NCBI GenBank assembly: GCA_965655095.1
Contig: OZ296656.1
Location: 10,540,001 to 10,604,000, forward strand
Direction of reading: 5' to 3'
Source: Haplodiscus bocki
Taxonomy: Eukaryota
Length of the DNA stretch: 64,000 nt
In this document: piece after piece, positions 7,814-42,300 of the stretch
How positions within the stretch are numbered: the stretch's first letter is position 1
Layout: the number at the start of each line of letters is the position of its first letter
The notes under the pieces: model-generated
What the model saw: only the letters and a program-made list of their open reading frames with translations
What the model was told of the DNA's origin: nothing
The model's database searches: none
Translations under genes and position numbers: made by a program

Positions 7814-7817
<4 letters not shown>

Positions 7818-7859
<42 letters not shown>

Positions 7860-7871
7860 TGTGTGTGTGTG
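7818..7871. repeat. (TG)n microsatellite followed by a G-rich tract
   Basis: About 27 TG units, then ggtggggaggaggggtgggggtggtgggg. Confidence 0.95.
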
Positions 7872-16990: not shown

Positions 16991-17049
16991 TTTTTATTCA
17001 CCTTTTCGTCATCATGCAGTCGCAAAAACATCTTACCACTGTAAAACAT

Positions 17050-19471
17050 TACTTTTTTTTCCGTTACACCCAAAGTCTGTCTGAAAATGCGGTGTGTTGA
17101 TATTTCGTCTCAGAAAGTTTATTCTACACATTGGGCGTCCACTAAACAAGAATGTACAATATCTTAAGGTACCAGCAATCCCAAAGCCGTATTGGGAAAC
17201 AATTGATCCGCACCCTCATTTTGTATAAAATGAAACTTCCGTCAGAAAACGCCATGCTTTGGCAAAAGCCTAACCGAAAAAGTGTTTCTAGTCGTCCGAA
17301 CTAAACTAAATATTTTTTGTAGTCTAGCAAGAGGCCAAAAAGTAAATTGGAAGCATTGAAAGGATACTCTTGATTTACGACAAATACAAATGTGTCTGAA
17401 ATTGCTTTTGTTTGCAAATTTATATCGAAAGATCGTTCTAGAGCTCGGGCTTTTACGTGAACAATTGACCCACAAGTCTGAATGGGCCCAAAAACCATAA
17501 TGGAAAATAATTTAGCTCAACTCCAAGAAGTCGGAAAATCAAAGTCCTGAAAATCGTGCGTTTTTTGAAATCATTTCAAGAACGCGATTTAGTTCGAATC
17601 AATCGTTTATTTTACAAGTCGGGGTGATCTCAAAACCATGTTATGAATCACTAACGATAGTCTCATGCTACCTTAAATGCAAAGTCCTTCCCAAATTGCC
17701 GCACCCCACGCATTTTGAAGGAAAATTGGTTACAGTCCTGCTAGCGCAACTAATGATTTCAGGTAATTTTTTAGGCCAGTCGGAAACCACGTTGGGCAAG
17801 CAATTGGACGTGAACTGAGCATATCAACTTAAGACACAAGGTTTCTTTAAAAAATGCAAATCCATGAAATTGATATGAAAATTTCGAACTCAAATATCTA
17901 TTTCTAATTGAAATAAGGTACTGCCTTATCGATTGAGCCCGAAATGTACAGTGACAACAGTCCAAGGTTTGTTTCACGTCAGCTGAAAGCTGGATTTTCT
18001 GCAAAATCCATTCTGTTTCAAAGTCACATCAAAAATTGTTTCAGGTTTTTGAACTGTAATAACCTTTAATGTTCAGCAGCCCATCAATCTGTTCCAAAAC
18101 AGTGAAAGGTTCACTGATAAGGTTCACTGCAAGTCATTCATGAAGTGCCTTTGTTTTTTTAAACGACATCAAAAACGGTGGCTGTATACAACCGTTATCA
18201 ACTGTAAATTTGATGTGAAAAACAGTGCGAGTTCGAAAACAAAACGTCAAACAACGAAATGATTTTTTTACCTAGCCAACTTTCGTTCAGACATCTTTTC
18301 CCGAAAAAGTTTACCATCTTCGAAAAATAAAATTTAGGAAGTGATGTTTGAATCTAAGAATCGAAGAGCAGAAATCCCATCCAAATCTACTCTACTTTTT
18401 GCAAAAACTTGAGCTTCTCGGCCCAGTTTCATTCTATTGACGACAGTGTGTTCAGGACGAACTATCATAAAAGTGGGAAGAGGCCTAGAAAACGTTTTTC
18501 AAACAGCTCCAAAACGAAAAAGAGACATGAACGAGTTTTTTTCTACGAGGCAATGTTTTTCAGCGGTTAGGAAGAATCAATGTCCAAAAAGCGGTTTCCT
18601 GGAAATTTAGCTTTTACATTCCCAACACATTACGAGTGTAAAAATTAGGTGCGTGGAAACAAAATTGCATACTGCTGCTATAGAAGCAAACTTCTGTTTT
18701 AATTTGATCAGCGGGAAATTTGACGAAGCTGAATTGTGTGAAACTGACAAAAAACGTCCACTTGAACTGTGTGAATACAAGAAACAGCGCTGTTCGAACT
18801 TCTGAATGTTCGCCCGCTTTGTTTGAAAATTTATATCGAACCAATCAAATTTCTAATAAAATAAGGGATCCACCAGCTTAAGTTCAAAATTTGAAACTGT
18901 TGATGCGTTGAAATTAAACACTTGAACAAAATTTTCTAGCTGTCGAAAGCAATCATTGTCCAAACAGTGGTTTTCTTGAAAATTAGCCCTACCATTCCCA
19001 ACGCTATTCCAATGTGAAAATTAAGTGCTTCAAAACAGTATTGATTACTGTTGCCACAGAAGCAAGCTGTTGTTTCATTTCGATCTTTGGATTTTTCGAT
19101 GAAAATCAAATGTGTGATGCTAACAACGTTCACTTGATCTGTGAGAATACAAGAAACAGCTTTGTTTGGATTTCCGAAACTTTGCCCATACTGTTTGAAT
19201 TGTCAAATCAGGATAATCAATTATTCAATTTGAATAATTGATCGACAATTGTCAGTTCAGAACCTGAAACTGTTGATGCGTTGAAACAAAATACTGAAAA
19301 AGCTTTGGAAGAGTTTTTGTCAGCTATTTAGTTCTAAGAATTTATTGTGTTTGTTGGCCTTTTTCTACATTCACCTCTAATCTTTCACATCGAAGCTCAT
19401 CAAAAAAAGAGCAGACTTGAATTTTTTGGTTCTGAATGGCGATTTAAGGAATGAAAATTAAGAGACACTTG
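17050..19471. repeat. Outer palindrome X, left arm part A
   Basis: Reverse complement of ~36790-39330 at roughly 85-90% identity, e.g. caatcccaaagccgtattgggaaacaattgatccgcaccctca (17176) vs tgagggtgcggatcaattgtttcccaatacggctttgggattg (39164). Mirrored ORFs 18614- / 37417+, 19014+ / 37025- and 17301- / 38887+. Confidence 0.92.
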
Positions 19472-19589
19472 AGTAGTAGAGTAGTGGGCAGAGCTGACGG
19501 GGGTAGTTGAAGACCCTATGTATTAAGGTAGGCCATAGCGAGCCGAGTCGATCCGAGAGCCGAGAAGGGTCTTCAACCGTAGCCGAGAG

Positions 19590-19782
19590 CTCTCGGGTGA
19601 CGTAATACTCGATTCTGATGGGCTGACGACTCGTGTTACGTATTACTCGAATTTGATTGACTGCCGAGTAATGTAATACTCGATTCTGATTGGCTGACGA
19701 CTCGGGTGACGTAACACTCGATTCTGAATAGCTGACGAAGTTGAGGGGCCTTTTCGTGCTCGATTTTGATTGGCTGACGACT
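19590..19782. repeat. Subterminal ~38-bp repeats containing CCAAT and CRE/ATF-like motifs (mirror copy at 33298-33490)
   Basis: 4-5 units of ctcgggTGACGTAAtactcgattctgATTGGctgacga. Confidence 0.8.
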
Positions 19783-19811
19783 CGAACTGCCGAAATCCGA
19801 GTGTATTCGGC

Positions 19812-21185
19812 TCAATGTATTAAGATGGGGTATAGATCGGCAATGTATTAATATAGGGTGTAATTCGGCTCAATGTATTCACATAGGGAATAGTTCGGCT
19901 CAATGTATTTAGATAGGGTATAGATCGGCAATTTATTAAGATAGGGTGTAATTCGGCTCAGTGTATTAAGATAGGCTATAGTTCGGCTCAAGGTCTTAAG
20001 ATAGGGTATACTTCGTCAATGTATTAAGATAGGGTATAGTTCGGCTCAATGTATTAGGATAGGGTATAGTTGGGCAATGTATTAAGCTGGCAATGCATGT
20101 ATTTAAGATATGGAGCCGAAAGCGGACTCAATGTATTAAGATAGGCAATTCATGTATTAAGATATGGAGCCGACTCAATGTATTAAGATAGGAAATGCAT
20201 GGTGTCGAAAGCCGAATCAATGTATTAAACTAGGTAATGCATGTATCAAGATGGGGATGCATGTATTAAGATAGGCAATAGCATTTTGTAATGTATAAGC
20301 ATAAGCTAGGGCTCGCCTCAATGCTTAAATATATGGAATGACTCATTTTCGGCACTGTGAGACTTTTTCGAGAAATTTTTTTTGAACTTTTTTTCCAGGG
20401 GCCTGCGCGTATAATTATGACGGCACACACTAATTATGACGCCTGAAGTTGATTTTTGTGCCCGCGGATAGTGTTTTGACTTAATGCAATGTGAAAGTGC
20501 ACTTCGGCAGTGTATTAAGATAGGTATATTTTAGTATTGTTTTAAGATGGGGTTTAGTTCGTTAATGTATTAAGATTGGTTATATTTCGGTAACGTATTA
20601 AGATAGGCTATAGTTCGGTAAGGTATCGGGATAGGGTATAGTTCGGATCCATGTATTAAGATAGGGTATAGTTCTGTAATGTATTAAGATTGGTTTTTGT
20701 TCGGTAATGTTTTGAGATAGGGTATAGTTCGGTAATGTATTGAGATAGGGTATAGTTCGGTAATGTATTAAGGTTGAGTAAAGTTCGGGTCAATGTTTTG
20801 AGCAGGGGATAGTTCGGTAATGTATTAAGATTATATACAGTTCGGTAATGTAACAAGATAGGGTATAGTTCGGTAATGTTTTAAGATAGAGTATAGTTCG
20901 GTAATGTATTAAGATAGGGTGTAATTCGGTTCAATGTATTAAGATAGGGTATAGTTCGCTAATGTATTAGGATTGTTTTACACTTCGGTAATGTAATATG
21001 ATAGGGTATAATTCTGTAATGTATTAAGATAGGGTTTATTTCGTCAATGTTTTAAGATAGGGTATAGTTCGGTAATGTATTATGATAGGGTACATTTCGA
21101 CTCAATATTTTAAGATAGGGTATAGTTCGGTAATGTATTAAGATAGGGTATAGTTCGGTAACGTATTAAAATAGGTTATAGCTCG
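19812..21185. repeat. Subterminal 28/30-bp tandem arrays (aatgtattaagatagggtatagttcgg[t/ctc]), left arm: ~19812-20280 and ~20505-21185
   Basis: Dozens of adjacent diverged units with no unique spacers. Confidence 0.95.
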
Positions 21186-24100
21186 GTGACGCCTGCGGAA
21201 CAGTAATTTCGCAGGAAAATCTCAAACAAACGTAAAGATTATAGCAACTTGACTGAGGCAACGGAAATAGAAAAATGGCGAAGAGACTGTAGCCTGTGTT
21301 GTCTATTACAAAAAACCCTATATGGAAAGACAATAAAAGGAAAGACCACCCATGAAAGGAAAGACTAACCATAAAACGAAAAACCGCACGCGCTGTCAAT
21401 CACTCTCTGTTGCGCCCGCGGACACTGTTTTGACCTAATTCTATGTGGAAAGGTTGATTTTATTTTCCAAAATGTTAGTTAGCGAGAGCAAATGCAAACA
21501 AAAGCATTGGATATCCTGCACATTTACATTGATGCAGACTACAAAACGGATGATTTTTCACGCTTACGCCTGTATTGTGCGCCTGCAGGTACTCATTTGC
21601 TATGTCAACACATGTTTGCAACATATTATTAGGAGATTTTGCTAAAAAATTGCGGGTTTGACTGTTGTTTCTTATCCGCGCAAGGTATTGAGAGACAAGC
21701 AAGGACGTCTGTTCATGTAGAAACGTGGGTTTTTACTCCGTTCAATGTAAAATGACGGAGTTTTATAGATAAAGTTTTGTACTGCAACAATTTACGTTCA
21801 ATTAATGTCGCATTTTTTGAACTAGAAAAAGCAATGTACACCGTCGCAACTCCTGTTCCGGTGTTGACTATCATCACTCCTGGTCGTTATACTCACAGTA
21901 AACAATCAGAGATTTTTCATGCTAAATTTAACTTGAAGGTGAATTGTGAGAAAAAATGCGCTACAGCAAGACTTTAAAGCTGTACTTTTGCGTCGAAGAG
22001 TCGCTCAGCTAACAAAAAATGGTTTGAACGCACAGCAACAGAGTCTGCATGACTGTAAGATACCACAACAAATTTGTGAAAGTTGATAAATAACCTGTGT
22101 TTTGAGGCTTTCTTTGGGTTTGTCTACACAAATCATGGAGTTTGAGTACAAGCAAGCATACAAAATGATTGAAACAGGAGTCTTAATTTGAAAATCACAG
22201 ATTATGATGCCATATCAACCTTTTTTGTTTTACTTTGGTAGCAATATGCTTAAAACTGAATGATGAACTCATGTGTCTTACGACTCAATGTCAAAAAATG
22301 CCGAGTGTAAATGCAAGAAGGTGGGCAAAAAGTTGAGGAGACCGGCTCTACACGCTTTCATAATACATTGTGGATCAAAATCGACTTGGATCGCACCACC
22401 TAATACATTGACGGACTCATACATTCGGTTTTTGTTGAAAACTCAATTTTTATCTCAATTTTATGACTCAGACGCCCAAATCCAAACCATATTTTATTAC
22501 TTTACCGAAGTATACCGTCTTAATACATTCGTCGGTAGTCTAGGCTATCTTATTACTTTGCTGAAGTACACCCTGCTTTAATACATTGTTGAACTAAACA
22601 CCAACGAAATCACATTGCTGAGCTATTGCCTATCCTAACACCTTGTTGAGGTACATCCGATCTTATTACATTGCTAAGCAATTCCCAATTTCAAAACATT
22701 GCTGATCTTTACCCAATCCTAACCCATTGTTGGGGATATAGCCAACATTAATACATTGCTGAGCTATAACCTGTTTTAGTACATTGTCGAACTATAATCG
22801 ATCTTAGTGTACTGCTGTCAGCTTTCGCGAAACGTTGTCAACAGCCAATCAGAATCGAGTATTACCTCACCCAATAGCACAATCAAAAATCAACCTAACT
22901 ATATTACAAACAGGCAACCTAATACCTACATGTATGTATTTGGACACAAATTTAAAATCATTGCCATCAAGGGAAGTCCTGTAGACCAATCATCATGCAA
23001 TAGTTTTAGCGAGCTGATTGACGAGTATCAAGTATAAAAAACAGTTCCGTAAGTGGTTGGAAGCGAGAACCGATCAACATACAGCGAGAAAAGCGTGGAG
23101 TGACTACATCGTTATTTGTTTTTTAAATAAATTTAACTTGACCTAGGACAGGAAGCTGCTTCCATATATAGATATTAACCCGACCTACTTGAATTACAGA
23201 GGTAAAGAGTAGTACATTATGTGTCTTACCGGGCATAGTTGTAGAGTCCGGGCACTCAATAGAAGCTACAAAGATTAATGGGTAGATAAAAAGATAACTA
23301 GGGTGAAAATTGCATGAAGGGTGCTCTGTAACTTGTTTTTTGCAGGAGAGTAATTTCCGGCTTTCCAGAGTGGTTAATTGTTCAAAACCACCTGAATGTT
23401 GTAAGCGAAAAGTGCAGTCATGTTTCACCGGTCAATTGAGAAAACTAAAGAAGGAAACCTAGCTAGGTCTGGGAAGTTGTTGAGAAATTGGGACATTGAG
23501 TAAAATGAAGCGTCCCAGTTGAACATCTCGTATACCGTCAGAAAATGCTTCTTCTAGTTTGTGTTCCACAATTTATTCAAGTGATTTTTTTCGTTGCGTT
23601 TGACGGAAGATATTTGAGTAATAGTCGTATAAGAGAAGTTTCTGAAATCGACGTAAAAATTGTAGCAACTTGACTAAAGCAATGAAAAAGAAATAATGGG
23701 GAAAATATGTAGCAGGTGTTACTCATTACTTTATATCAGATATGGATTGTCCAAAAAAGGAAAGACCAACCATGAGAAGAGCTGTCAATCATTTTCTTTC
23801 ATTTTAAAAACGGACTATTTACATTTAAAAACTGGCTAAAAAGATGAAAGTGCTTGTCTATGAAACAACTCAAGTGGAACAAGTTCCCCTTGTATGGTGA
23901 CAGACTGTCTGGGAAAATTATTCACCGGATTAACATCGCATACAGAGTGTCTGAGAAAATGACTTAAGAGGAACAAAGTCCCCTGATAAGGCGACAGGTT
24001 GTCTGGAGAAATTACTCTGAACAAATGACTGAAAAACAAAATAGTGTTAAAACTTGCACCAAGTCTCCAAATAAGGAATCACCTTCCATGTATGGAAATC

Positions 24101-24349
24101 GTTGTAGCTTTGACCAAAAAAAAGGTTGTCCATATAAAGCAGGTATGAATCGGTTAAAATCAAATAAAAGCAGCTACTTGCCACTCTGCAAAATCATTTT
24201 CTGAATATCGTTTCCAACAACAGCAACTCGCTTTTCCAGCGACGAACGTACCCAAACAGTGGTGAAATTTCTCATCAATACCTGCTTATGATCAGAATTC
24301 AGTGCTCGAATTTGTCGAAATTGAATAACTGTTCCCTTTACAAGAAGTG

Positions 24350-25024
24350 ATGTGCAGCTACAATAAAACCCAAGTCTCTCCTTATGATCCTACAAAGCTT
24401 GCAATTCATTCTATTTGGCGTGCAGAAGATGATCTTATATCAAATTGTGGCCAGATTTTAAAAAAGACTGTTTCTTTCGATGACAATGTGCGCTTCATTA
24501 ATGAGGAGGACATCGTAACCTATGGAGATTTTGATTGTGGTTTTACTTTCAACCCTGAAACTCCTACGAAAATCAGAGAGACCAACCGAGAACGGAATTA
24601 CATTTCCAGATCCTCTTAAAAATCCAACTGCATTCCCAGTAACGATCGGCATAACTGTTTTATTGATGAGCAGCAGGACTCTAATATCTTTCTGAACCCG
24701 TACAATTTATGGGACATGGTTCCAGCAGCTCTTATGTCATTCAATCTTACTAATGATAGATACTCTATGTCCAATCAGTAGCCTCAACCAATAACTCACC
24801 AACCTAGAACAGACTCATATCCGGTGTTCTCTTCATTGCGAAGGATGGACAGTCAAAAGAAGGGATTGCGCGTCAGCTTTGCATTCTTTCAACGAAAATA
24901 CCTACCAGACGGACGAGTGAACGAAACTGTTAATACGATTGAAGAGTTGAGTGATATCTGGAAACGCGGAGCGAGGGATGGAGTTTCGCCGTTTGTGATG
25001 AACTGTAATTGTATTTAAGTGTAG
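24350..25024 (+). pseudogene. Disrupted copy of a 224-aa ORF of unknown function (left arm of Y)
   Basis: ATG at 24350; in-frame stops at 24617, 24779 and 25016; terminal TAG at 25022. The mirror copy has sense codons at all three positions. Confidence 0.65.
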
Positions 25025-25770
25025 CCATTTGTTTCACTTGTTTGATTTCTATTGTTTGCTTGTGGAATATTTTTTTTTCAAAAAATTACTTTTTTTTGTT
25101 CCCTTTGATGACTTTGAGTGAGAAGTAAAACTTCATCGATAACTTCTATGTAAGGTAACATTCCCTTAGGCAGCCGAAGCCGCAACCCATCTTAGTACAT
25201 TGCAGAAGTTCACCCTAGCGTAATACATAGATGCACACCCTCCTCGCCCACCACTCTCTATAACCTACTTCAATACTTGATCAGTTCGGTTCTCTGCCTG
25301 ATCATAGGACATCACGTCATCATAAATGAGTCACTGAAATCAGACTACTTTTCTCTGTACGTTGCAAACCTCATAGTCGCTAGTTGAACCTTGTTAAATA
25401 GCATTCCTTATCTACGTAAATCGATGAACCAACTCGGATCGGATTGGCTGTCTTAATACGTCTTGTTACGTTGATCACAGTTGGGGTACACAAAGCCTAT
25501 CCTAACAGAATAACTTGACTGATTGAACCCAAACCATACATCAAAACAGTACCGAAACATGCCCTCTTTTGATGAAGGAAAATTTGGCAAACTGCAGAAG
25601 AAGTACACTCAAAATCTGACACGTTGTCAAATTTTGAACTCAAAATCTGACGCGTTGTATTTTTTTAAATTCAAAATCTGACGCGTTGTATCTTTTTCAA
25701 TTCAAAATCATGCTTTTTAAAAAAGCAGGAAAAATGCAAAATATGTCGTTGTCACGAAGTAAAAAGAACC

Positions 25771-26530
25771 TACACTCTGTATTAAGATAGGGTATGGTTC
25801 GATTCAATGTATTATTATAGACCATAGTTCAACAATGTACTAAGGTAGGGTATAGCTCAGCCATGTAATAGCAGAGGGTATACGTTAGCAATGTTATAAG
25901 ATGGGGAACAGCTCACCAATATAACAAGATAGGTAATACGTCAGCAATGTTTCAAAATTGGGAGCTTTTCAGCATTGTAATGAGACAAGGTTTACGTCAG
26001 CAATGTTTCAAGATTGGGAACATCTCAGCAATGTAAAAAGACAAGGTGTACGTCACGAAAGTTTTAAGATTGGGAATAGCTCGGCAATGTAATAAGACAG
26101 AGTGCACCTCAACAATGTGTTAAGATTAGGTATGGCTCACCGATGCAAAAAAAGTTGGAATTACTCCGCAAGGTAATAAGATTGGAATTGCCTCAACAAT
26201 GTGTTAGGATTGGGCATAGCCATGCAATGTTTTAAGGTAGACTATACCACAACAATGTATTAATGCTGGGTAAAGCTCAACAGGGTAATAATGTAGCGTA
26301 TACCTCAGCAAAGTGATAAGATTGCGTACACTCCCCATCAGTGTATTAAGACAGGGTATGTTTCCACAATGTAACAATGTATGGTATGGATTTGCGTTCC
26401 CGAGTCCTTAACTTGAGATAAGTTTAAGCTTTCGGCAAAAACCGAGTGCATAAGACCGTCAAGGTATTATGATGTGCGATCCGAGCTGGTTTTGTTCGGA
26501 AATGCATTGTGATAGCGTGTAGAGCCAGAC
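25771..26530. repeat. Older, diverged relic of the same subterminal array family inside the Y spacer
   Basis: Degenerate aatgtattaagatagggtatagctcagc units, then a unique block (26380-26525, atggatttgcgttcccgagtc...agcgtgtagagcc) about 70% similar to 30650-30795. Confidence 0.7.
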
Positions 26531-27149
26531 CGTGCAGACACCAAAAAACGGTGAAACATCCTTGAAGCTGAGAAGGTCGTACACTTATGCATCAAAGTAT
26601 GCTTTAATTCAGCAGTTCAAGGGACCACTACGCATTTAAGGTATGTTTTAAGCCACACATGTCTTGAAATTCGATTTTCGATGAAGCATTGTTAGTTTTG
26701 ATAAGTGTCAAGATTGTGGTAGGTAAAGTCCCGCAGCCAATAATGGGTAGATGCTCTGTAGGTGACAGTTTCTTTCAATCGCTCTCCTTCTTGTTGCTCA
26801 CACAAAAACATTGGAAAAAATGGAGGGAATTCGAACTAAAGAGCGTTATCTTTTGTTTTCACAAAAGTGTATTCTGAGAAACACTGCTGATTTGGTATAT
26901 TTTATGCTCCACAGTGTTCTGTCTGTAACTTCTGTGAAAATTGTGTGTCGTCATAATGCTACTCCTCACACATTGAGAGACGAATTGACATGTGGCAGCT
27001 TCCATTTGTCGATCTGGCGACTAACTCTATACCACGCATTGTCTTTTAATTCCCCTCTTTAAACTAATTTGGTAACAAAGTTGACAGAAGATATCATCAT
27101 TCATTCAGAAACTGAAAAACAAGATAAAAATCAGATTTGGGAGAAATAG

Positions 27150-27522
27150 TTTTAAAACTTGTCAGATTTTGAATTGAAATTTTTACAACGCGTCAGATTT
27201 TGATTTGAAGTTTATACAACGCGTCAGATTTTGGATTGGAAAAAAATACAACGCGTTAGATTCTGAATAGAAAATTTTTCGACATGTCAGATTTTGAAAA
27301 AATTTTGCATCCAAAAAAATCACGTTTTTGGTTCTTTTTACTTCGTGAAAACGACATATTTTGCATTTTTCGTGCTTTTTTAAAAAGCACGATTTTGAAT
27401 TTAAGAAAATACAACGCGTCAGATTTTGAATTTGAAAAAATACAGCGCGTCAGATTTTGAATTTAAAAAAATACAACGCATCATGTTTTGAATTTCAAAA
27501 AATACAACGCGTCAGATTTTGA
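27150..27522. repeat. ~31-bp tandem repeat (tacaacgcgtcagattttgaatttaaaaaaa); truncated mirror copy at 25608-25770
   Basis: Repeated units are visible directly. The inner breakpoint of the Y arms (27330) lies inside this block. Confidence 0.85.
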
Positions 27523-28112
27523 GTGTACTTCTTCTGCAGTTTGCCAAATTTTCCTTCATTCACCAAAAGAGGGCATGTTTCGGTAATGTTTTGATGTATG
27601 GTCTGCATTCAATCAGTCAAGATATTCTGTTAGGATAGGCTTTGTGTACCCCAACTGTGATCAACGTAACAAGACGTATTAAGACAGCCAATCCGATCCG
27701 AGTTGGTTCATCGATTTACGTAGATAAGGAATGCTATTTAACAAGGTTCAACTAGCGACTATGAGGTTTGCAACGTACAGAGAAAAGTAGTCTGATTTCA
27801 GTGACTCATTTATGATGACGTGATGTCCTATGATCAGGCAGAGAACCGAACTGATCAAGTATTGAAGTAGGTTATAGAGAGTGGTGGACGAGGAGGGTGT
27901 GCACCTATGTATTACGCTAGGGTGAACTTCTGCAATGTACTAAGATAGGTTGCGGCATCGGCTGCCTAAGGGACTGTTACCTTACATAGAAGTTATCGAT
28001 GAAGTTTTAATTCTCACTCAGAGTCATCAAAGGGAACAAAAAAGTATTTTTTTGGAAAAAAAACAAATATTCCACAAGCAAACAATAGAAATCAAACAAG
28101 TGAAACAAATGG

Positions 28113-28787
28113 CTACACTTGAATACAATTACAGTTCATCACAAACGGCGGAACTACATCCATCGCTCCGGGTTTCCACATATCACTCAACTCTTCAATC
28201 GTATTAACAGTTTCGTTCACTCGTCCGTCTGGTAGGTAATTTCGTTGAAAGAATGCAAAGCTGACGCGCAATCCCTTCTTTTGACTGTCCATCCTTCGCA
28301 ATGAAGAGAACACCGGATATGAGTCTGTTCTAGGTTTGTGAGTTATTGGTTCAGGGTACTGATTGGACATAGAGTATCTATCATTAGTAAGGTTGAATGA
28401 CATAAGAGCTGCTGGAACCATGTCCCAAAAATTGTACGGGTTCAGAAAGATGTTAGAGTTATGCTGCTCATCAATAAAACAGTTATGCTGATCGTTACTG
28501 GGAATGCAATTGGATTTTTCACAGGATCTGGAAATGTAATTCCGTTCTCGGTTGGTCTCTCTGATTTTCGTAGGAGTTTCAGGGTTGAAAGTAAAACCAC
28601 AATCAAAATCTCCATAGGTTACGATGTCCTCCTCATTAATGAAGCGCACATTGTCATCGAAAGAAACAGTCTTTTTTAAATTCTGGCCACAATTTCATAT
28701 AAGATCATCTTCTGCACGCAAAATAGAATGAATTGCAAGCTTTGTAGGATCATAAGGAGAGACTTGGGTTTTTTTGTAGCTGCACAT
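28113..28787 (-). pseudogene. Second copy of the 224-aa ORF (right arm of Y), single stop at codon 31
   Basis: ATG at 28787. TGA at 28697-28695 where the left copy has TCA. The rest is open to the TAG at 28113 (track ORF 28113..28649). Confidence 0.65.
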
Positions 28788-31700
28788 CACTTCTTGTAAA
28801 GGGAACAGTTATTCAATTTCGACAAGTTCGAGCACTGAATTCTGATCGTAAGCAGATATTGATGAGAAACTTCACCACTGTTTGGGTACGTTCGTAGCTG
28901 GAAAAGCGAGTTGCTGTTGTTGGGAACGATATTCAAAGAATGATTTTGCAGAGTACTAAGTTGCTGCTTTTACATGATTTTAACCGATTCATAACTGCTT
29001 TATATGGACAACCTTTCCTTTTTTGGTCAAAGCTACAACGCTTTCCATACATGGAAGGTGATTCCTTATTTGGGGACTTGGTGCAAGTTTTAACACTATT
29101 TTGTTTTTCAGTCATTTGTTCAGAGTAATTTATCCAGACAACCTGTCGCCTTATCAGGGGACTTTGTTCCTCTTAAGTCATTTTCTCAGACACTCTGTAT
29201 GCGATGTTAATCCCGTGAATAATTTTCCCAGACAGTCTGTCACCATAAAAGGGGAACTTGTTCCACTTGAGTTGTTTCACAGACAAGCACTTTCATCTTT
29301 ATAGCCAGTTTTTAAATGTAAATAGTCCGTTTTTAAAATGAAAGAAAACGACTGACAGCTCTTCTCATGGTTGGTCTTTCCTTTTTTGGACATTCCATAT
29401 CTGATATAAAGTAATGAGTAACACCTGCTACATATTTTCCCCATTATTTCTTTTTCATTGCTTTAGTCAAGTTGCTACAATTTTTACGTCGATTTCAGAA
29501 ACTTCTCTTATACGACTATTACTCAAATATCTTCCGTCAAACGCAACGAAAAAATCACTTGAATAAATTGTGGAACACAAACTAGAAGAAGCATTTTCTG
29601 ACGGTATACGAGATGTTCAACTGGGACGCTTCATTTTACTCAATGTCCCAATTTCTCAACAACTTCCCAGACCTAGCTAGGTTTCCTTCTTTAGTTTTCT
29701 CAATTGACCGGTGAAACATGACTGCACTTTTCGCTTACAACATTCAGGTGGTTTTGAACAATTAACCACTCTGGAAAGCCGGAAATTACTCTCCTGCAAA
29801 AAACAAGTTACAGAGCACCCTTCATGCAATTTTCACCCTAGTTATCTTTTTATCTACCCATTAATCTTTGTAGCTTCTATTGAGTGCCCGGACTCTACAA
29901 CTATGCCCGGTAAGACACATAATGTACTACTCTTTACCTCTGTAATTCAAGTAGGTCGGGTTAATATCTATATATGGAAGCAGCTTCCTGTCCTAGGTCA
30001 AGTTAAATTTATTTAAAAAACAAATAACGATGTAGTCACTCCACGCTTTTCTCGCTGTATGTTGATCGGTTCTCGCTTCCAACCACTTACGGAACTGTTT
30101 TTTATACTTGATACTCGTCAATCAGCTCGCTAAAACTATTGCATGATGATTGGTCTACAGGACTTCCCTTGATGGCAATGATTTTAAATTTGTGTCCAAA
30201 TACATACATGTAGGTATTAGGTTGCCTGTTTGTAATATAGTTAGGTTGATTTTTGATTGTGCTATTGGGTGAGGTAATACTCGATTCTGATTGGCTGTTG
30301 ACAACGTTTCGCGAAAGCTGACAGCAGTACACTAAGATCGATTATAGTTCGACAATGTACTAAAACAGGTTATAGCTCAGCAATGTATTAATGTTGGCTA
30401 TATCCCCAACAATGGGTTAGGATTGGGTAAAGATCAGCAATGTTTTGAAATTGGGAATTGCTTAGCAATGTAATAAGATCGGGTGCACCTCAACAAGGTG
30501 TTAGGATAGGCAATAGCTCAGCAATGTGATTTCGTTGGTGTTTAGTTCAACAATGTATTAAAGCAGGGTGTACTTCAGCAAAGTAATAAGATAGCCTAGA
30601 CTACCCACGAATGTATTAAGACGGTATACTTCGGTAATGTAATAAAATATGGTTTGGATTTGGGCGTCTGAGTCATAAAATTGAGATAAAAATTGAGTTT
30701 TCAACAAAAACCGAATGTATGAGTCAGTCAATGTATTAGGAGGTGCGATCCAAGTCGATTTTGATCCACAATGTATTATGAAAGCGTGTAGAGCCGGTCT
30801 CCTCAACTTTTTGCCCACCTTCTTGCATTTACACTCGGCATTTTTTGACAATGAGTCGTAAGACACATGAGTTCATCATTCAGTTTTAAGCATATTGCTA
30901 CCAAAGTAAAACAAAAAAGGTTGATATGGCATCATAATCTGTGATTTTCAAATTAAGACTCCTGTTTCAATCATTTTGTATGCTTGCTTGTACTCAAACT
31001 CCATGATTTGTGTAGACAAACCCAAAGAAAGCCTCAAAACACAGGTTATTTATCAACTTTCACAAATTTGTTGTGGTATCTTACAGTCATGCAGACTCTG
31101 TTGCTGTGCGTTCAAACCATTTTTTGTTAGCTGAGCGACTCTTCGACGCAAAAGTACAGCTTTAAAGTCTTGCTGTAGCGCATTTTTTCTCACAATTCAC
31201 CTTCAAGTTAAATTCAGCATGAAAAATCTCTGATTGTTTACTGTGAGTATAACGACCAGGAGTGATGATAGTCAACACCGGAACAGGAGTTGCGACGGTG
31301 TACATTGCTTTTTCTAGTTCAAAAAATGCGACATTAATTAAACGTAAATTGTTGCAGTACAAAACTTTATCTATAAAACTCCGTCATTTTACATTGAACG
31401 GAGTAAAAACCCACGTTTCTACATGAACAGACGTCCTTGCTTGTCTCTCAATACCTTGCGCGGATAAGAAACAACAGTCAAACCCGGAATTTTTTTAGCA
31501 AAATCTCTTAATAATATGTTGCAAACATGTGTTGACATAGCAAATGAGTACCTGCAGGCGCACAATACAGGCGTAAGCGTGAAAAATCATCCGTTTTGTA
31601 GTCTGCATCAATGTAAATGTGCAGGATATACAATGCTTTTGTTTGCATTTGCTCTCGCTAACTAACATTTTGGAAAATAAAATCAACCTTTCCACCTAGA

Positions 31701-31954
31701 ATTAGGTCAAAACAGTGTCCGCGGGCGCAACAGAGAGTGATTGACAGCGCGTGCGGTTTTTCGTTTTATGGTTAGTCTTTCCTTTCATGGGTGGTCTTTC
31801 CTTTTATTGTCTTTCCACATAGGGTTTTTTGTAATAGACAACACAGGCTACAGTCTCTTCGCCATTTTTCTATTTCCGTTGCCTCAGTCAAGTTGCTATA
31901 ATCTTTACGTTTGTTTGAGATTTTCCTGCGAAATTACTGTTCCGCAGGCGTCAC

Positions 31955-33275
31955 CGAGCTATAACCTATTTTAATACGTTACCGAACTATACCCTATCTT
32001 AATACATTACCGAACTATACCCTATCTTAATACATTACCGAACTATACCCTATCTTAAAATATTGAGTCGAAATGTACCCTATCTTAATACATTACCGAA
32101 CTATACCCTATCTTAAAACATTGACGAAATATACCGTATCTTATTACATTACCGAATTATACCCTATCATTTTACATTACCGAAGTGTAAAACAATCCTA
32201 ATACATTACCGAACTATACCCTATCTTAATACATTGAACCGAATTACACCCTATATTAATACATTACCTAACTATACCTTATCTTAATACATTACCGAAC
32301 TATACCCTATCTTGTTACATTACCGAACTGTTTATAATCTTAATACATTAACGAACTATCCTCTGCTCAATACATTAACCCGAACTATGCCCAACCTTAA
32401 TACATTTCCGAACTATACCCTATCTCAATACATTACCGAACTATACCCTATCTCAATACCTTACCGAACAATAACCAATCTCAATACATTACAGAACTAT
32501 ACCCTATCTTAATACAGGGATCCGAACTATACCCTATCCTGATACCTTATCGAACTATAGCCTATCTTAATACATTATCGAATTATAACCAATCCTAATA
32601 CATTAACGAACTAAACCCTATCTTAAAACAATACTAAATTATACCCTATCTTAATACACTGTCGAAGTGCATTTTCACATTGCATTAAGTCAAAACACTA
32701 TCCGCGGGCACAAAAATTAACTGCAGGCGTCATAATTAGTGTGTGCCGTCATAATTATACGCGCAGGCCCCTGGAAAAAAAGTTCAAAAAAATTTTCTCG
32801 AAAAAGTCTTACAGTGCCGAAAATGAGTCATTCCATATCTTTATGCATTGAGACGAGCCCTAGCCTATGCTTATACATTACAAAATGCTATTGCCTATCT
32901 TAATACATGCATCCCCATCTTAATACATGCATTACCTATTTTAATACATTGATTCGGCTTTCGACACCATGCATTTCCTATCTTAATACATTGAGTCGGC
33001 TCCATATCTTAATACATGAATTGCCTATCTTATTACATTGAGTCGGCTTTCGGCTCCATGTCTTAAATACATGCATTGCCAGCTTAATACATTGCGCAAC
33101 TATACCCTATCCTAATACATTGAGCCGAACTATACCCTATCTTGATACATTGACGAAGTATACCCTATCTTCATTATTTAAGCCGAACTATAGCCTATCT
33201 TAATACATTGAGCCGAATTACACCCTATCTTAATACATTGCCGATCTATACCCTATCTTAATACATTGAGCCGAA
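31955..33275. repeat. Subterminal 28/30-bp tandem arrays, right arm of Y (ccgaactataccctatcttaatacatt)
   Basis: Mirror of 19812-21185 with copy-number differences. Confidence 0.95.
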
Positions 33276-33615
33276 TACACTCGGATTTCGGCAGTCCGAG
33301 TCGTCAGCCAAATAAAAGCGAGCACGAAAAGGCCCTTCAACTTCGTCAGCCAATCAGAATCGAGTGTTACGTCACCCGAGTCGTCAGCCAATCAGAAGCG
33401 AGTATTACATCACTCGGCAGCCAATCAAATTCGAGTATTACGTAACACGAGTCGTCAGCCAATCAGAATCGAGTATTACGTCACCCGAGAGCTCTCGGAT
33501 ACGGTTGAAGACCCTTCTCGGCTCTCGGATCGACTCGGCTCGCTATAGCCTATCTTAATACATAGGGTCTTCAACTAACCCCGTCAGCTCTGCTCACTAC
33601 TCTACTACTCACCTG

Positions 33616-34307
33616 GCTTCGAGAAACCATAAATCAAGAAATTTAAAAAACCCGCTCCAGTTAAAACGCTGCTTATTGATACTTTACGTTAAGTGTTTGT
33701 CTGGATGCTTCAATCAACAGAATTTCAAGCTTCACTTGGAACAATGAACTGTCTGGACTGTCCCGTTTGTTTTCTGCTCTCCAATACCAAATGAAAGGAG
33801 GCTTCTTGATTCTGTTTGGGATTTGAGTCCGCAGTTGTATCTGAACTGAAAAACTCTTCAAAGTTTCTAAAGGTAGTGTATTTCAGCGGGTAAGAAAGCA
33901 ATGAACCATGCAAATTTTGGGCAAGGCAGCAAGTGTATGCCATAGCGCTTAGTTTGGGACGCTCTTTGCAAACCTCTCAACTTTCGTAGCGTGCAGAGAA
34001 GAATGTGTAGACTTGCACTGGCAACCATCCACTCTAGCCTACTTCTGCGTCGCCAACTTGGCTGAGGTAGATTTTTCCCATGCAATATTAGCATTCGCAG
34101 TAACGCAGCAGGCAAATTTTGGGTTTTCTTCTTAAATACATATTCGCGCAAGTTTTAACACGTTTTACATTGCGCATCACAGATTCATTCTTTTGAAAAT
34201 GAACTAAAAGTCAGTTTGAACTGAGCGGGCAGAATAAAGCGTGACTAAATGATTGTTTTTTCTGCAGACGCTAGTTGTCTTTTTCAGGAACTTTCGATTC
34301 AAGTCTG
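33616..34307. repeat. Outer palindrome X, left arm part B (continuation after the Y insertion)
   Basis: Reverse complement of 36100-36785. Mirrored ORFs 33867- / 36257+ and 33725- / 36465+. Arm symmetry ends at ...gattcaagtctg (34307) / cagacttgaatc (36100). Confidence 0.92.
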
Positions 34308-36099
34308 ACGGTTTTTCATTTGGACAGAAACAATATGAACAGATACTTGTTCACCGAGCCAAAGTTCAACACTCCGGAAATAAGGGATCCTCTCATGCCA
34401 GCTACATAATTGGCTTTACTGAGATTGAAACACTGTTTCTTGTTTTTAATCCAAGATGATTTCGTTGCTTGAAACCAGGTAGATAGTCAGGCATAAGTGC
34501 TTATGATTACAAAGAGTGTCCCTCAGTTCTATAGCCTGACGCTCCTTAAAATCACTTGCGTTTCATTGCCATTTTTTCTCATATTCAAGGTTTCTGTTCT
34601 GTGGGAAAATTTTAGCAACTAAGCAAAGTTGGAAACAGCCATTGCTCGTTATATTTTTTGTTGTCAGGCACATTTGCCCCACTCTTTTCCAGTTACCTCA
34701 CAAGATGAGTCAGATCGAGGATCGGGATTGTGCAATGTTTGTTTTTCAACATTGCTCAGCTAACATCAAAGCGTCTGCACAGGGCTCAAGTTGAAAATTC
34801 AAGGAATCACCTTCACGAAATCAGTGTTTGTAGTGGAAGCACGTAAACAAAATTTTTCAACCGCTCGACTGACGGAAGTTTTGATTGGATCAATCCATTG
34901 GAATGATCCTCAATTGATTTCGCTTTGAAAACATTTCAAAATTATGGCAATTGAACAACTGCAAATCGTTCCAATTTGTTGAAAAAGATTTTCAACAATA
35001 CTTCATCTTGACTATTCCGTACTGAAGAAGGACCTTCTACATTAAGCACACTACTTCTCTTTGCCCACAATATATAATGTATTCAAATGTAGATCTTTGT
35101 TCCTGCAATTGCTAAAGGTGGCATTTTTCAGCAGGCAAATGTCACAAATGTCACTAAGCAATTCTATTCACTCTGCTATCGATAATACGTTGAGGATCGC
35201 TTCCAAGGCGTTCACTTTGTGGTCGTTCAAGAGTGCTGCAGTCAAAATTTTGCCGTTCCAATCAGCCATATTTGCACAAAGTGATGCAAAGTCATCAAGA
35301 CGCTGACAATCGTTGACGCCTCCTACAGCAATCACTTTTTGAAAAGCTCTGATCAAAACTTCATCAAATCAAAAATTATTAATTCTTTCATTCACTAGAA
35401 ATCTCTAATCAATGTTTCTTGCAATCAGCATTGCGCATCTCCGCTTCTTGATTGTGCAGGTTTCCTGTTGTGATGGCCGGAAGTTGTTACCCATCATCTT
35501 TTGCTACAGAGTCAGCTTTGAATCGCCAATCGGATGAGTACTTGATCAAGAGAAGTGGAACCAGCAGCTCTTACCAGTTACAAAAGAGTCGAAATCAGTC
35601 TCGATGTTTTCCTGCTGAACTTGGGTCCCGTGAAAAACAACGCCACCGAATATTCCACTTTTTATGTGCTAACAGCAAGACGCTCAATTTCAGGCTCCGC
35701 ATTGGCAAAATGAACCAACTGATAGTGATTCTAGAATCAAACCGAGCATTTTGGTTCCATGAGTCTACATTAAACAACGCTGTCAGATAGGTATCGATTG
35801 TTATTGGATAGATTGGGGAAACTTCTCACATAATATGTGATGTGGCAAAATTCTCGAAACATTTTTTCCTCTATTCGTTCTACCGTAGTTGTTTTTGATT
35901 TCTCAGAAGCTTGTGTTGTTTCGGGAAATTGTAAAACTGTTCACATAGTCTAATTTTGTACAAATGCTTGTGGTATCAGTGAAATCCGTCGAGACCAATC
36001 ACACACAATGCTCCACTCAAAGCTCAATTCACGTTTTCTTTCGGTCGTGGGAACATAAAGCAATGAACTTGAATTGCCGTAATCACTCATAGTGGGGCC

Positions 36100-39000
36100 C
36101 AGACTTGAATCGGAATTTACTGAAAAAGACAACCAGCGTCAGCAGTAAAAACCACCATTTAAACAGGCTTTGTTTCACCAGCTAAGTTCAAACTGGATTT
36201 TAGTTCATTTTCAAAAGAATAAAACTATGATGCGCAATTTAAAAAGGTGTTAAACGTTGCGCGAATATGTATTGAAAAAGAAAACCAAAAATTTGCCTGC
36301 TGCGTTACTGCGAATGCTAATATTGCATGGGACAAATCTACCTCAGCCAAGTTGGCGACGCAGAACTAGGCTGGAGTGGATGGTTGCCAGTGCAAGTCTA
36401 CACATTCTTCTCTGCACGCTACTAAAGTTGAGAGGTTTGCAAAGAGCGTCGTAAACTAAGCGCTATGGGATACACTTGCTGCCTTGCCCAAAATTTGCAT
36501 GGTTCATTGCTTTGTTACCCGCTGAAATACACTACCTTTAGAAACTTTGAAGAGTTTTTCAGTTCAGATACAACTACGGACTCAACTCCCAGACAGAATC
36601 AAGAAGCCTCCTTTCATTTGGTATTGGAGAGCAGAAAACAAACGGTACAGTCCAGACAGTTCTTTGTTCCAAGTGAAGCTTGAAATTCTGGTGATTGAAG
36701 CATCCGAACAAACACTTAACGCATAGTATCAATATGGAGCGTTTTAACTGGAGCGGGTTTTTTCTGAATTATGGTTTCTCGAATCCAAGGGTCTCGTAAT
36801 TTGCAATCCTTAAATCGCCGTTCAACGCCAAAAAATTCAGGTCTGCTCTTTATTTTGAAGAACTTTGATGTGAAAGATCATAGGTTAATGTAAAGAATGG
36901 CCGAAGAACACAATAAATTCTTAACTCTGAGTTGCTGACAATAACTCTTCCGCAGCTTTTTCAGTATTTTGTTTCAACGCATGAACAGTTTCAGGTTCTG
37001 AACTGACAATTGTCGATCCATTATTCAAATTGAAGATTTGAGTTTTCTGATTCGACAATTGAAACAGTATGGGCAATTTTTCCTGAAAATACAAACAATG
37101 CTAATTCTTGTATTCACACAGATCAAGTCGACGTTGTTGGCATCATACATTTTACTTTCATCGAAAAAGCCAAAGATCAAATTGAAACAACAGCTTGCTT
37201 CGATGGCAACAGTATTCAATACTGTTTTCAGGCACCTAATTTTCACTTACGAAGAGTGTTGGGAATGGTAGAGCTAAATTTCAAGAAGACCACTGTTTGG
37301 ACATTGATTGCTTTTAACAGCTGGAAAATTTTGTTCAGGTGTTTAATTTCAACGCATCAACAGTTTGAAAATTTGATTTTTAGCTGGTGGATCCCTTATT
37401 TCAATGGAAAGTTTGATTGATTCGATATAATTTTTCAAACAAAGTGGGCGAACATTCAGAAGTTCGAACAGCGCTGTTTCTTGTATTCACACAGTTCAAG
37501 TGGACGTTTTTTGTCAGTTTCACACAATTCAGCTTCGTCAAATTTTCCGCTGATCACATTAAAACAGAAGTTTGCTTCTATAGCAGCAGTATGCAACTTT
37601 GTTTTCACGCACCTAATTTTTACACTCGTAATGTGTTGGGAATGTAAAAGCTAAATTTCCAGGAAACCGCTTTTTGGACAATGATTCTTCCTAACCGCTG
37701 AAAAACATTGCCTCGTAGAAAAAAATTCGTTCAAGTCTCTTTTTCGTTTCGGAGCTGTTTGAAAAACGTTTTCTAGGCCTCTTCCCACTTTTATGATAGT
37801 TCGTTCTGAACACACTGTCATCAATAGAATGAAACTGGGCCGAGAAGCTCAAGTTTTTGCGAAAAGTCAAAGTAGATTTGGATGGGATTTCTGCTCTTCG
37901 ATTCTTAGATGCAAACATCACTTCCTAAATTTTATCTTTCGGTGATGGTGAACTTTTCCGCAAAAAGATGTCCGAGCGAGAGTTGGCTAAGTAAAAAAAT
38001 CGTTTCGTTGTTTGACGTTTTGTTTTCGAACTCGCACTGTTTTTCACATCAAATTTACAGTTGATAACGGTTGTATACAGCCACCGTTTTTGATGTCGTT
38101 TAAAAAAACAAAGGCACTTCATGAATGACTTGCAGTGAACCTTATCAGTGAACCTTTCACTGTTTTGGAACAGATTGATTTGATAACGGATGTTTAGAGC
38201 TACCGTTCTTGATGTCGTTTTACAGAACAAAGGCACCATATGAATGATTCATGAGTTTGCAGTGAACCTTTTGGCTGTTTTGAAACTGATTGCTGGACTG
38301 CTGAAGATTTGAACATTAAACGTTTCTACAGTTGGAGAACCTGAAATACGTTTTTGATGTGAGTTTGCAACAGAATGGCTTTTTCAGAAAATCTAGCTTT
38401 CAGCTGAGGTGAAACAAGCTTTGGACTGGTGTGACTGTGCTTTTCTGGCTCGATCGAGAAGGCAGTACCCTATTTCCTCCATGATTTGATATTTGATTTT
38501 GAAATTTTGATATCAATTTTATGGTTTTGCATTTTTTTCAGAAAGTCTTTTGTCTTAAGTTGATTCTCAGTTCACGCCCAATTGCTTCCCCAACATGGTT
38601 TAGGACTGGCCCAAAACCTAACCGGAAAACTTTAGTTGCGCTATTTGGACTATAACCAATTTTTCTTCAAGGCGCGTGCGGTGCGGCGTTTTGGGAAGGA
38701 CTTTGCAATTAAGGTAGCGTGAGACTATCATTAGTGTTTCATAACATGACTTTGAGATCACCCCGACTTGTGAAACAAACGTTTGATTCACACTAAATTG
38801 CGTTGTTGATATGATTTCAAAAAACGCACGATTTTCAGGACATTGATTTTCCGAGTTCTTGGAGTTGAGCCTGATTTTTTTCCATTATGGTTTGTGGGCT
38901 CGGTCAGTCTCGTGGGTCATTTGTTTACGTAAAAGTCAAAGCTCTAGAACGATCTTCTGATATAAATTTGCAAACAAAAGCAATTGCAGACACATTTGTA

Positions 39001-39330
39001 TGTTTCGTAAATCAAGACTATCTTTTCATTGCTTCCAAATTACTTTTTGGCCTCTTGCTAGACTACATAAAATATTTTGTTTAGTTCGGATGACTAGAAA
39101 CACCTCGGTTAGGATTTTGCGAAGGCATGGCGTTTTCTGAAAGTAGTTTGATTTTATACAAACTGAGGGTGCGGATCAATTGTTTCCCAATACGGCTTTG
39201 GGATTGCCGGTATTTTAACATATTGTACGTTCTTGTTTAGTGAACGCACAATGTGTAGATTAGACTTTCTGAGAAGAAATATCAACACACTGAATTTTCC
39301 GACACACTTTGGGTTTAACGGAAAAAAATG
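36100..39330. repeat. Outer palindrome X, uninterrupted right arm
   Basis: Continuous reverse complement of (17050-19471)+(33616-34307). Carries an extra ~115-130-bp tandem unit at ~38180-38300 that the left arm lacks. Confidence 0.92.
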
Positions 39331-42300
39331 TATTAATATTTAGTTACTTTGAAATCGATTTTGGGATGCCACAAGGCAACCAATCTTGTAGTACAATTCG
39401 AGGACTGAAGCCTCAGGTTGTCAGTAATTTGGCAAGGGAACGGCATTTTTAGATTTTTTTTGGTTTTGTGGAATGTGGTACCAACGCTGGGTTGTTGTTC
39501 AATGTAGTTTTTGGCTCATTTTGTCTAGTGCATGAAATATTCAGTTGAATATTTAATGTAACTGTCTGAAATCGCGTTTCTCATGTGAATTGTAAAATAA
39601 CTTTGCACTTTTCAACAACCATTTCGGTCATTGACATCGAGAGCTGCGTTGAAGTTTCTCAGAAGATGGCTTTTCAACTCACCAAGACTGGTATGTCAAA
39701 TGTTTATTTTCAGGTCTAGCACAACCGTTTTATCATGATTTTGTTAAGCAAGGAATTTTCTGAGACTTTTATTTTCCGTTTTCTAATAGTACTGTTTAAT
39801 TGCTACTGATTGGCATTTCAGTTTTTACAGTAAAAGTTTATTTGATTTCTGATTGTAATCTTTTTGCAGGTTTTGGACTCGCCCACAAACTTTTAAATGA
39901 GTTCGTTGTTTTAAAAGCAACTTTTAAATGTGAGTTTGTGAAAGAACAGCTTTTTAAGAAAATCTTTTGGTTTGTGGCGTTGCGACACTAACGTTTGAGT
40001 GTTTTTCCAATATGCTTTAGGACTCACTCACACCTATTTATAAAATGGCTAGTTTGGTTGGGCCTTTATAAATTCAGTTGGGAGTTTTCGGTTTTGAACT
40101 TCGTCAGACTCCCCTATAATAGTTTTACAGCATGGTTTTGGCGTCGCCCACAGTTATGCATTGAATGTTTAACAGAGTTCGGAGTTCCAGATTTATCTCG
40201 TCTGATATGAGTTTCTTAAAAAACGGTTTTTCAGAATGTCTTTGGTTTTAGGCATTGTAAAGATTGTAAATAACATCCAAGTGTTGCCCATCGCGATTTT
40301 TGGACTCGCTCAGACTTTTATTTTCCGCCCGAATATAATTATGGAAGAAAATCATCCATTAAGAACGCTGAGCTCGAACGTTTTCTTGCCAATTGATAAT
40401 GTCTGCCTTGGAACTAGTGTCCGGTTCTGACTTTAAAGGTTTTTGATTCGTAAATTGCGACTGAAACAGCAAGTTTTCTCAAAACGTACAAAACTTGGGT
40501 TCTTTGAAAAAAGTCGGGTTTTTATTCCGAAACTTGTATGATTTCTGTCAATGGAGAAACTTCTGTCATATAATGCTTAGCGGGCAAACAGTTTTCAAAA
40601 TTACTCAAGGGAACGTTTGTAGAAATGTCAAATCTACGCAGAAAATTTGGATTGTCAACGAATTTTGACAGTTGGTTCACTTACTGTGTACTTAGTCAAC
40701 AAAATTCAGTCTCGGTTGAATTTGTACGTTGACATTTTTGATTTAGAAATTTTTCGGTGTGGGAGTCAAAAACGGCCTTTGACCCTCCTTTCCTTACTAC
40801 TAAGAATTGTTTTTTTTTGAAAATTTGCGACATCTATTTAATTTCAAAATATTTATGCAATCGAAACATATCACAGGATTTGAGAAACTCGGGAATTTTT
40901 GTGGTACATATTTTCTCTAAATTTTTTTTCTGACTTGGTCAAACTTCAAAAAAAAACGACAGAGATTACTAAAATTGGCAAATATTAACCAATGAGATTG
41001 CGATTTCAGAGCGAATAACGAGATCCTATTGGCTGAAGAGCGTCTTTGAACGCTATTAAGCTCCATTTTTTTGAAACACTACTAGATAGTTTCGAATTTC
41101 ACTTGTGTAACTCCCAATGCATCGATGTATCCTTACAATACAGAAGGGAATCAAGAAACGGGAAAATGCATACAATCCTGATAAGCTATACGGTTCTGCA
41201 AGTTTTTTTGTGCAGCCGAGCGGCCAGTTTTTGAAAGTCGCGAAAAACAGGGCTGAAAAGAAAACGAGTAATTCAGTTCCCGGCTCACCAAATCAGTTTC
41301 CGCCAGCAATTCTTGATCTCATAAATGGTCGATGCAAACTTTACTGCGAAATTGAAAGTTTCATCCGTAGAAAGTAATATGTCAGCATACAGCCTGTTAC
41401 TTCTCTGTTCTAGTAAGTAGCCTTTTGCTGTTTCATTCACGGATGCAAAATAGAAACTGACGGTTTGTTCCAAAGCATGGTTTCTATAAAAATATTTTTG
41501 CAACCGAATTTCGTCATTTTTAAACTCTTTCATTCAGGGTTTGCCAGTTTCTTGTTCTTATTAAGCGATATACTGATTAGGTTAGTCGATTTTTTCTGCG
41601 ATTGTTAAATTGTAATACCGTAAGAAACCAAGCGAAATATGGAAATTCAAAAACACCAGCATTGCAAAAACAATTAAAAAGCATAAACACGTTGAAATTT
41701 GATCACAACTCTTGGTCGGACTGAACACTTTCAGTTGTTGGGTTAAATTAGCATATAAAATTCCGGCTGAATGCTAAAAACTTTCTGATATTCGAAGTGA
41801 CAGAGGCTTTGCTGGTGCGTGTAGCTCTGTGACGTTTGAAAGAATCAAAAGCTTCAATTCCTTCCATTTTTCCAGTAAATTTAAAAAATTAGAATGATTG
41901 TCAGAAAGCAATGTCATTGAAGATTTGAACCTTACTAAAATGAATAATGCTAATGTTTTATTCGCAAAAAATGAATAAGCGATACTAATTCCAATGGAGT
42001 GCTGGCCGTAGACAACATGTATTAGTATACACCATGAGCTTGCTCATGCCGGAGGTTATTTTCCTTGGAAGGAGAGGTTTGGTCATTTGGCCGAAAAATG
42101 TTCAGGACATGAGGTTTGTCATTTTCATTTCCAAATTGCTTCAGATCATTCTGGTTTGAAGCGGCAGAGTGGGGAATTTCGGGAGTTTTCCCTGCCAAAT
42201 CACCGATTCCATTTTGTTTTTTTTTCAGTATTACTGGAAAATCCATATAGGTTAGATTTACGCACGTTTCAACTCAAGGAACAATGGTCATTTACCGCTG

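Follow-up and report, generated by a model that had tools for sequence, protein, structure and literature searches.

Nested long-armed palindromic elements with Polinton ends in the genome of Haplodiscus bocki

Results

Structure of the nested elements

The window analysed here is a stretch of 64,000 nucleotides from Haplodiscus bocki (assembly GCA_965655095.1, contig OZ296656.1, positions 10,540,001 to 10,604,000 of the forward strand), and positions without a contig number refer to this window. It contains two palindromic elements, which we designated X and Y, with Y inserted in the left arm of X. The outer part of the left arm of X (17050–19465, plus strand) is a mirror of 39332–36792 and is broken off at approximately 17044–17050, whereas its inner part (33616–34307, plus strand), on the other side of Y, mirrors 36787–36100. 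The arms are separated by an unpaired part of 1792 bp (34308–36099), in which the remnant of a thymidine kinase, decayed and interrupted by stop codons, is located on the minus strand (35030–35392). The still-paired part of the right arm (36100–39332, minus strand) carries an extra repeat of approximately 120 bp at 38180–38298, and continues in an outer part (39333–40801, minus strand) that no longer has a counterpart on the left. This outer part contains the terminal repeat of X, of approximately 162 bp (40640–40801, minus strand), and is followed by AAGAAT (40802–40807, plus strand), a candidate right target duplication proposed from the behaviour of the family; its left partner would have stood at the lost end.

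Y is a gene-less, long-armed element of 14.1 kb (19472–33609), which starts and ends with AGTAGT/ACTACT. It is flanked by CACTTG (19466–19471) and CACCTG (33610–33615), both on the plus strand, which match in 5 of 6 letters and represent the two copies of its target duplication. The left arm of Y (19472–25770, plus strand) contains arrays of 28–30-bp subrepeats at 19806–21187, and the right arm is located at 27330–33609 (minus strand). Between them 1559 bp are unpaired (25771–27329); in other copies the sequence of this part lies within an arm or runs on into a terminal-repeat array.

An earlier reading of the window, made from its sequence only, had proposed that X and Y are palindromes of different age. 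Self-comparison of the window confirmed that 17050–19471 plus 33616–34307 (3114 bp) mirror 36100–39332. The identity of the X arms, given earlier as 85–90%, ranges from 85 to 92% (85.1, 91.7 and 91.5% by BLAST; 87.0, 92.1 and 92.4% when only substitutions are counted). The arms of Y are 94.2% identical by BLAST and 97.4% by substitutions. The insertion site of Y is present once, and empty, in the right arm of X, showing that Y was inserted only when both arms of X were in place. Y is thus the younger element, as had been proposed, and was inserted into a pre-existing arm.

It is very improbable that X arose from a dispersed repeat inserted twice, independently and in opposite orientation, or that it is an assembly artefact, even though this copy shows neither a left end nor a verifiable target duplication. 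The two arms of X are 87–92% identical to each other, whereas the best other copies are 76–84% identical, and relatives have the same layout with target duplications. In addition, both joints between spacer and arm were spanned by contigs in all three public sequencing runs (two samples from one study, possibly the source of the assembly), which rules out an assembly fold-back as the source of X. X is therefore one element, as the earlier reading had it.

Termini and dispersal of the X and Y families

X had been described as having no visible termini. Comparison with relatives showed that family homology and an AGTAGT end reach 40801, which is 1.47 kb past the right boundary claimed for it. 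Relatives of the X arm also extend outward beyond 17050, and they match the right arm in the window up to 40801. Approximately 1.47 kb, including the terminus, is lost from the left end of X; the left terminus was found neither in the window nor in the 30 kb upstream of it, and the relatives had no match to the left of 17044. The (AGT)2...(ACT)2 termini of non-autonomous Polintons are present at both ends of Y and, with the left end lost, at the right end only of X.

A genome-wide search with a piece of the X arm yielded 556 first-look candidates, 40 of which were scored, and the X end yielded 979. A 6-bp target duplication was found in 15 of the 18 complete copies of the X family or its sister families (12 perfect, 3 with one mismatch); the other 3 had mirrored flanks in its place. 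Arms in the X and sister families are up to 7.2 kb long at 98.6% identity. All 6 sister-family copies have arms of 3.5–7.2 kb (98.6–99.8%) that end at the target duplication. The Y family (3410 candidates genome-wide) includes short-armed copies of approximately 8 kb besides palindromic ones. The proposal that X and Y had been formed at this site did not survive, as both belong to dispersed families, but long palindromes do recur, in several families of this genome.

With the X end alone, 13 elements were fetched: 10 gene-less X copies and 3 gene-bearing Polintons. The gene-less copies extend inward to 35940–36099 in 8 of 10 cases, and none of them showed a longer unique interior beyond that point.

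The centre of the X palindrome

At 29 other loci that hold 35800–36099, homology ends at the same place, and the second arm resumes at differing points nearly every time. In other copies the centre of the X family is found approximately 35–110 bp past 36099. It is a GC-rich two-armed (T-shaped) hairpin inside a stem, the predicted structure having z values of -13.1 and -10.7. A reading of the common end point as a fixed fold-back site was dropped, since the true centre lies just beyond 36099. The hairpin centre had 11 matches genome-wide, 5 of which contain both stems, and a long arm was found joined to either side of it, which indicates a symmetric ancestor. The identical centre recurs at unrelated loci, with arms extending to the termini, so the palindrome travelled as such. 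Copies at other loci form near-perfect palindromes around this hairpin.

The unpaired part of X is, on this comparison, best described as left-over arm, from which the mirror copy and the hairpin centre are missing in this copy. The similar spacer sizes of X and Y (1.8 and 1.6 kb) had been regarded as a signal. They are a coincidence, because 24 joints in the X family had unpaired lengths between 0 and 6070 bp; these joints came mostly from loci chosen for holding 35800–36099 and are biased to copies keeping the near-centre region, a bias of which the end-picked set is free. Central deletion of long palindromes is an established phenomenon.

The T-shaped hairpin is also present in elements with arms unlike X (sister families; L173/L174, L163, L169) and is thus common across families, but the X-type hairpin was not seen in Y family copies. 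It had no match in Rfam and no phage match, and a six-frame Pfam scan of X revealed no Rep gene. Its likeness to the end of adeno-associated virus (AAV) is one of shape only. Runs of 200 N, possibly assembly gaps, are often located at palindrome centres (L032, L105, L120, L122, L128 and others), and intact centres may therefore be undercounted.

Coding content and gene-bearing partners

Genes for polymerase, integrase, packaging ATPase or capsid were not found in X or in Y 21190–27330 by six-frame Pfam scans. X had been described as packed with decayed open reading frames. One recognisable remnant bears this out, the thymidine kinase in the spacer, which was the only Pfam match in X (PF00265, E 4e-11); for the rest the description did not hold.

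The kinase remnant is present across the X family. A host thymidine kinase gene with introns lies approximately 1 Mb from the window (G000:C9:11597471-11598336; L342, L343); the X remnant shows 27–39% amino-acid identity to it, without any nucleotide match. The top PDB matches were two 177-residue kinases (E 8e-10 and 1e-9), one of which we take to be that of vaccinia, followed by the cytosolic enzyme (E 3.5e-7), a gap too small to decide the origin. A protein search gave 2 unnamed matches, and no intact intron-less copy was present among 150 scored of 478 candidates. The remnant is also found in a tandem array of approximately 70 units of approximately 2 kb (G000:C2:135560000-135708000; L344–L371). 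Shorter tandem arrays derived from X are located at C94:44–52 kb and C1:187.16 Mb.

The three gene-bearing partners of X are Polintons of 14–15 kb with the domains DNA_pol_B_2, rve and Pox_A32 and with target duplications of their own. The 162-bp end (40640–40801) is common to X and these partners at 85–88%, and neither blastn nor tblastx detected anything beyond it. Two gene-bearing families were examined, and their interiors matched the interior of X neither at the nucleotide nor at the protein level. X is thus linked to Polintons, as had been supposed, through a terminal repeat, whereas its description as an eroded Polinton interior is contradicted for these two families. Since the partners share only the end and the interior matches no examined family, X appears to act as a satellite with nothing borrowed but the end.

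The end sequence of Y forms the outer terminus of 18.5-kb elements encoding an integrase and an A32 ATPase; the first 210–230 bp (approximately) of Y are 87–93% identical to these gene-bearing Polintons. Homology of Y to gene-bearing Polinton interiors is partial and consists of short non-coding and gene-start pieces. When the natural open reading frames of gene-bearing copies were used in tblastn, the sole match was a short stretch of Y near 23454–23703.

The 18.5-kb Polintons (L081–L089, L097–L099; for example G000:C4:96346724-96365297) have composite ends. An outer Y-type terminus is followed, 370–800 bp inside, by another terminus of a different type, which is found in mirror image at either end of the element; the target duplication lies outside the outer terminus. 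All 5 Y-ended gene-bearing copies that were fetched carry the mirrored inner terminus.

Other features of the window

The stretch abutting the left break of X (approximately 13500–17043, minus strand) is single-copy, strand-biased and A-rich, and looks like decayed coding sequence. It had no Pfam match; motif fragments in it resemble those of a Gypsy-type pol gene. In window positions 1–308 and positions 2695–9100 of locus L050, a pair of repeats and pol-like open reading frames point to a possible long terminal repeat retrotransposon ending at the start of the window. A 25-bp tandem array (43547–44437; 35.7 copies, 97%) has an inverted degenerate partner at 42725–42848. This array belongs to a dispersed repeat that is also found in L193 and L252.

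Discussion

We consider it likely that X and Y are two dispersed long-hairpin families without an intact protein, mobilised in trans via a shared Polinton end, with long arms favoured by snap-back, and that Y nested in X probably by chance. The ends, target duplications, dispersal, shared terminal repeat, insertion order and lack of excess nesting on which this reading builds were all observed directly. Gene-bearing Polintons of the same genome would copy and insert X and Y in trans, as the shared ends and target duplications suggest. The end of approximately 162 bp would be the origin for the protein-primed polymerase of the partner and, at the same time, the attachment site for its integrase. 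The displaced single strand of a palindrome could snap back and so restore a double-stranded origin, much as in the snap-back genomes of AAV (PMC8235507) and in hairpin forms of protein-primed plasmids, and for this reason long arms would be favoured and equalised. Ancestral X may have been a near-perfect palindrome around the T-shaped hairpin, from which separate asymmetric deletions of the centre would have left spacers without a set length, that of this copy being 1.8 kb long. Once inserted, elements would have undergone patchy copying between their arms in the chromosome, and the left end of this X copy would have been lost later.

Several observations weigh against this reading. Mobilisation in trans is likely but deduced from sequence, and neither mobilisation nor extrachromosomal forms were observed. 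The long open reading frame of the 18.5-kb partners of Y was not recognised as a polymerase in Pfam or PDB, where only the integrase and the ATPase were recognised. The T-shaped hairpin showed compensatory changes in 0 of 17 pairs (6 distinct rows), and its 94.7% paired positions were not above those of shuffles. It is also missing from most copies, including young ones, and is thus not needed for transposition. The divergence between arms is patchy in X, in Y and in 5 other elements (7 of 7, p at most 0.001). Furthermore, in the copy at C7:4.19 Mb (G000:C7:4190900-4205370; L177/L178) a mirrored copy of an arm and 1315 bp of its flank lies to the inside of the original right end, and this end still has its 6/6 target duplication beyond the copied stretch. 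Repair in the chromosome is thus able by itself to produce arms and to make them alike.

The arms were closer to each other (0.5–13%) than to any other copy in all 5 copies with both arms. Differences inherited separately by left and right arms were rejected, as the arms resemble each other most within each copy. Arm and flank copied in place, together with the patchy divergence, show that part of the arm equalisation occurs in the chromosome. As to the age difference between X and Y, nesting supports the order proposed earlier, but the difference itself cannot be read precisely from patchy arm identity.

These results bear on a second explanation, in which X and Y are ordinary short-ended non-autonomous Polintons whose long arms arose and were kept similar solely in the inserted element, through break repair or conversion between its two ends in the chromosome, and have no role in replication. 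The C7:4.19 Mb copy and the patchy identity speak for it, as do three further copies with 230–980 bp of mirrored flank without a terminus (L181/L182, L096/L095, L196/L193) and the existence of short-armed X and Y copies. We nevertheless regard it as unlikely, since the same hairpin centre is found at unrelated loci, the long arms of all 6 sister-family copies end at the target duplication, and breakpoints differ among short-armed copies, as deletions would.

The nesting of Y in X raised the question of self-targeted insertion, which the sequence-only reading had suggested. The library used here comprised the elements collected in this study (few families, incomplete), and 60 random 6-kb regions (L221–L280) served as background. 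In these, 166 of 1194 tiles (13.9%) were Polinton-related, spread over 16 of 60 regions (bootstrap 7–22%). This share of approximately 14% (7–22%), from few families only, is far above the vertebrate copy numbers given in PMC8097293. With the window excluded, 2 of 22 Y-type elements (28 ends) were located in Polinton-related DNA, or 3 if a match 700 bp away is counted (p 0.76–1.0; small samples, the upper 95% limit for Y being 29%). For X-type ends this was 0 of 28, with 1 further locus lacking a locatable end. None of the 28 other X loci had a Y-type end at the homologous site.

Two more nests of a Y-type element in X also count against chance, one of them with a joint approximately 40 bp from the site homologous to that of Y. 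By a rough estimate approximately 0.6 would be expected (approximately 1 Y-type element per Mb, and approximately 0.6 Mb of X sequence viewed). They form no clear excess, although there may be a weak preference for X. That Polintons of this genome insert preferentially into each other, possibly with a hot spot in X, is improbable in our view. The joint near the homologous site fits such a preference, and so do multi-layer nests at C2:14.70, C1:13.33, C11:6.38, C9:52.49 and C12:61.18 Mb. Against it stand the counts given above, which do not exceed the background (small samples, incomplete library), the absence of interruption at the homologous site and the free variation of the target hexamers. 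Self-targeted insertion was thus not seen. Y probably landed in X by chance, given that Polinton-related DNA fills approximately one-seventh of the genome.

Some of the nests are complex. Those at G000:C2:14697482-14729051 (L046–L049) and G000:C1:13.33–13.35 Mb (L096/L094/L095) have three layers, consisting of an X-type shell, a Y-type end and a gene-bearing Polinton; in the former the inner joints are mirrored and not duplicated. At G000:C12:61.176–61.202 Mb (L376–L378) a gene-bearing Polinton whose ends are of yet another type is located near the centre of an X copy.

A bolder version of the snap-back reading is possible but doubtful. In it the X family would be a snap-back satellite that multiplies extrachromosomally, as a molecule closed at one end by the T-shaped hairpin and carrying a protein-primed Polinton end at the other, with a borrowed origin of 162 bp and a kinase remnant from another virus. 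The same end-copying would have grafted old termini onto gene-bearing Polintons, so that ends would be modularly rewritten as in adenovirus panhandle repair.

Non-autonomous Polintons, which are gene-less, have Polinton ends and are mobilised in trans, are a known kind of element, and X and Y resemble these families in being gene-less with Polinton ends. We know of no description of non-autonomous Polintons with a conserved hairpin centre, serial loss of the centre or embedded mirrored termini. Among other protein-primed linear replicons, a hairpin derivative, the yeast hairpin plasmid, was reportedly described by Kikuchi in 1985, in a paper cited in PMC4443254. A case of end rewriting is the panhandle repair of adenovirus, in which terminal repeats become embedded. 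Unlike X and Y, both the yeast plasmid and adenovirus are extrachromosomal and without an integrase.

X and Y share the (AGT)2 end motif and the 6-bp target duplication with Polintons/Mavericks (PMC8097293, PMC10748475), and their partners in this genome encode a protein-primed polymerase, an integrase and a packaging ATPase. They differ in having no intact gene; X, moreover, shares only approximately 162 bp with its partner, and its interior, which contains the thymidine kinase remnant, is foreign. Their arms of 3–7 kb also contrast with the terminal repeats given in these papers, 46–1447 bp for vertebrate Mavericks (PMC8097293) and 100–1500 bp for Mavericks (PMC10748475). Snap-back genomes of AAV are similar in being self-complementary, helper-dependent subgenomes with a terminal origin and loops of variable size (PMC8235507). 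AAV uses rolling-hairpin replication instead of protein priming, and its snap-back genomes derive from the virus's own genes and are not integrated with target duplications. In the literature searched, no multi-kb hairpin or long-armed non-autonomous Polintons are described, although repeat libraries and supplements may hold such families; the accessible parts of PMC8097293, PMC10748475, PMC3014272, PMC6431247, PMC7805219 and 10.1101/2024.01.15.575659 contain no multi-kb hairpin form of Polintons.

The nest itself is ordinary, and the families behind it matter more. Arm identity is of little use for dating such elements, and gaps in genome assemblies probably arise at their centres. If the extrachromosomal snap-back reading is true, these families would be the first genomic record of a replication intermediate proposed for Polintons, whose replication has so far been inferred and not observed. 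Hundreds to thousands of long-armed satellites form a natural record for testing the strand-displacement/panhandle model: their centre is fixed and has undergone deletions serially, their arms are equalised copy by copy, and termini are embedded in them in mirrored form.

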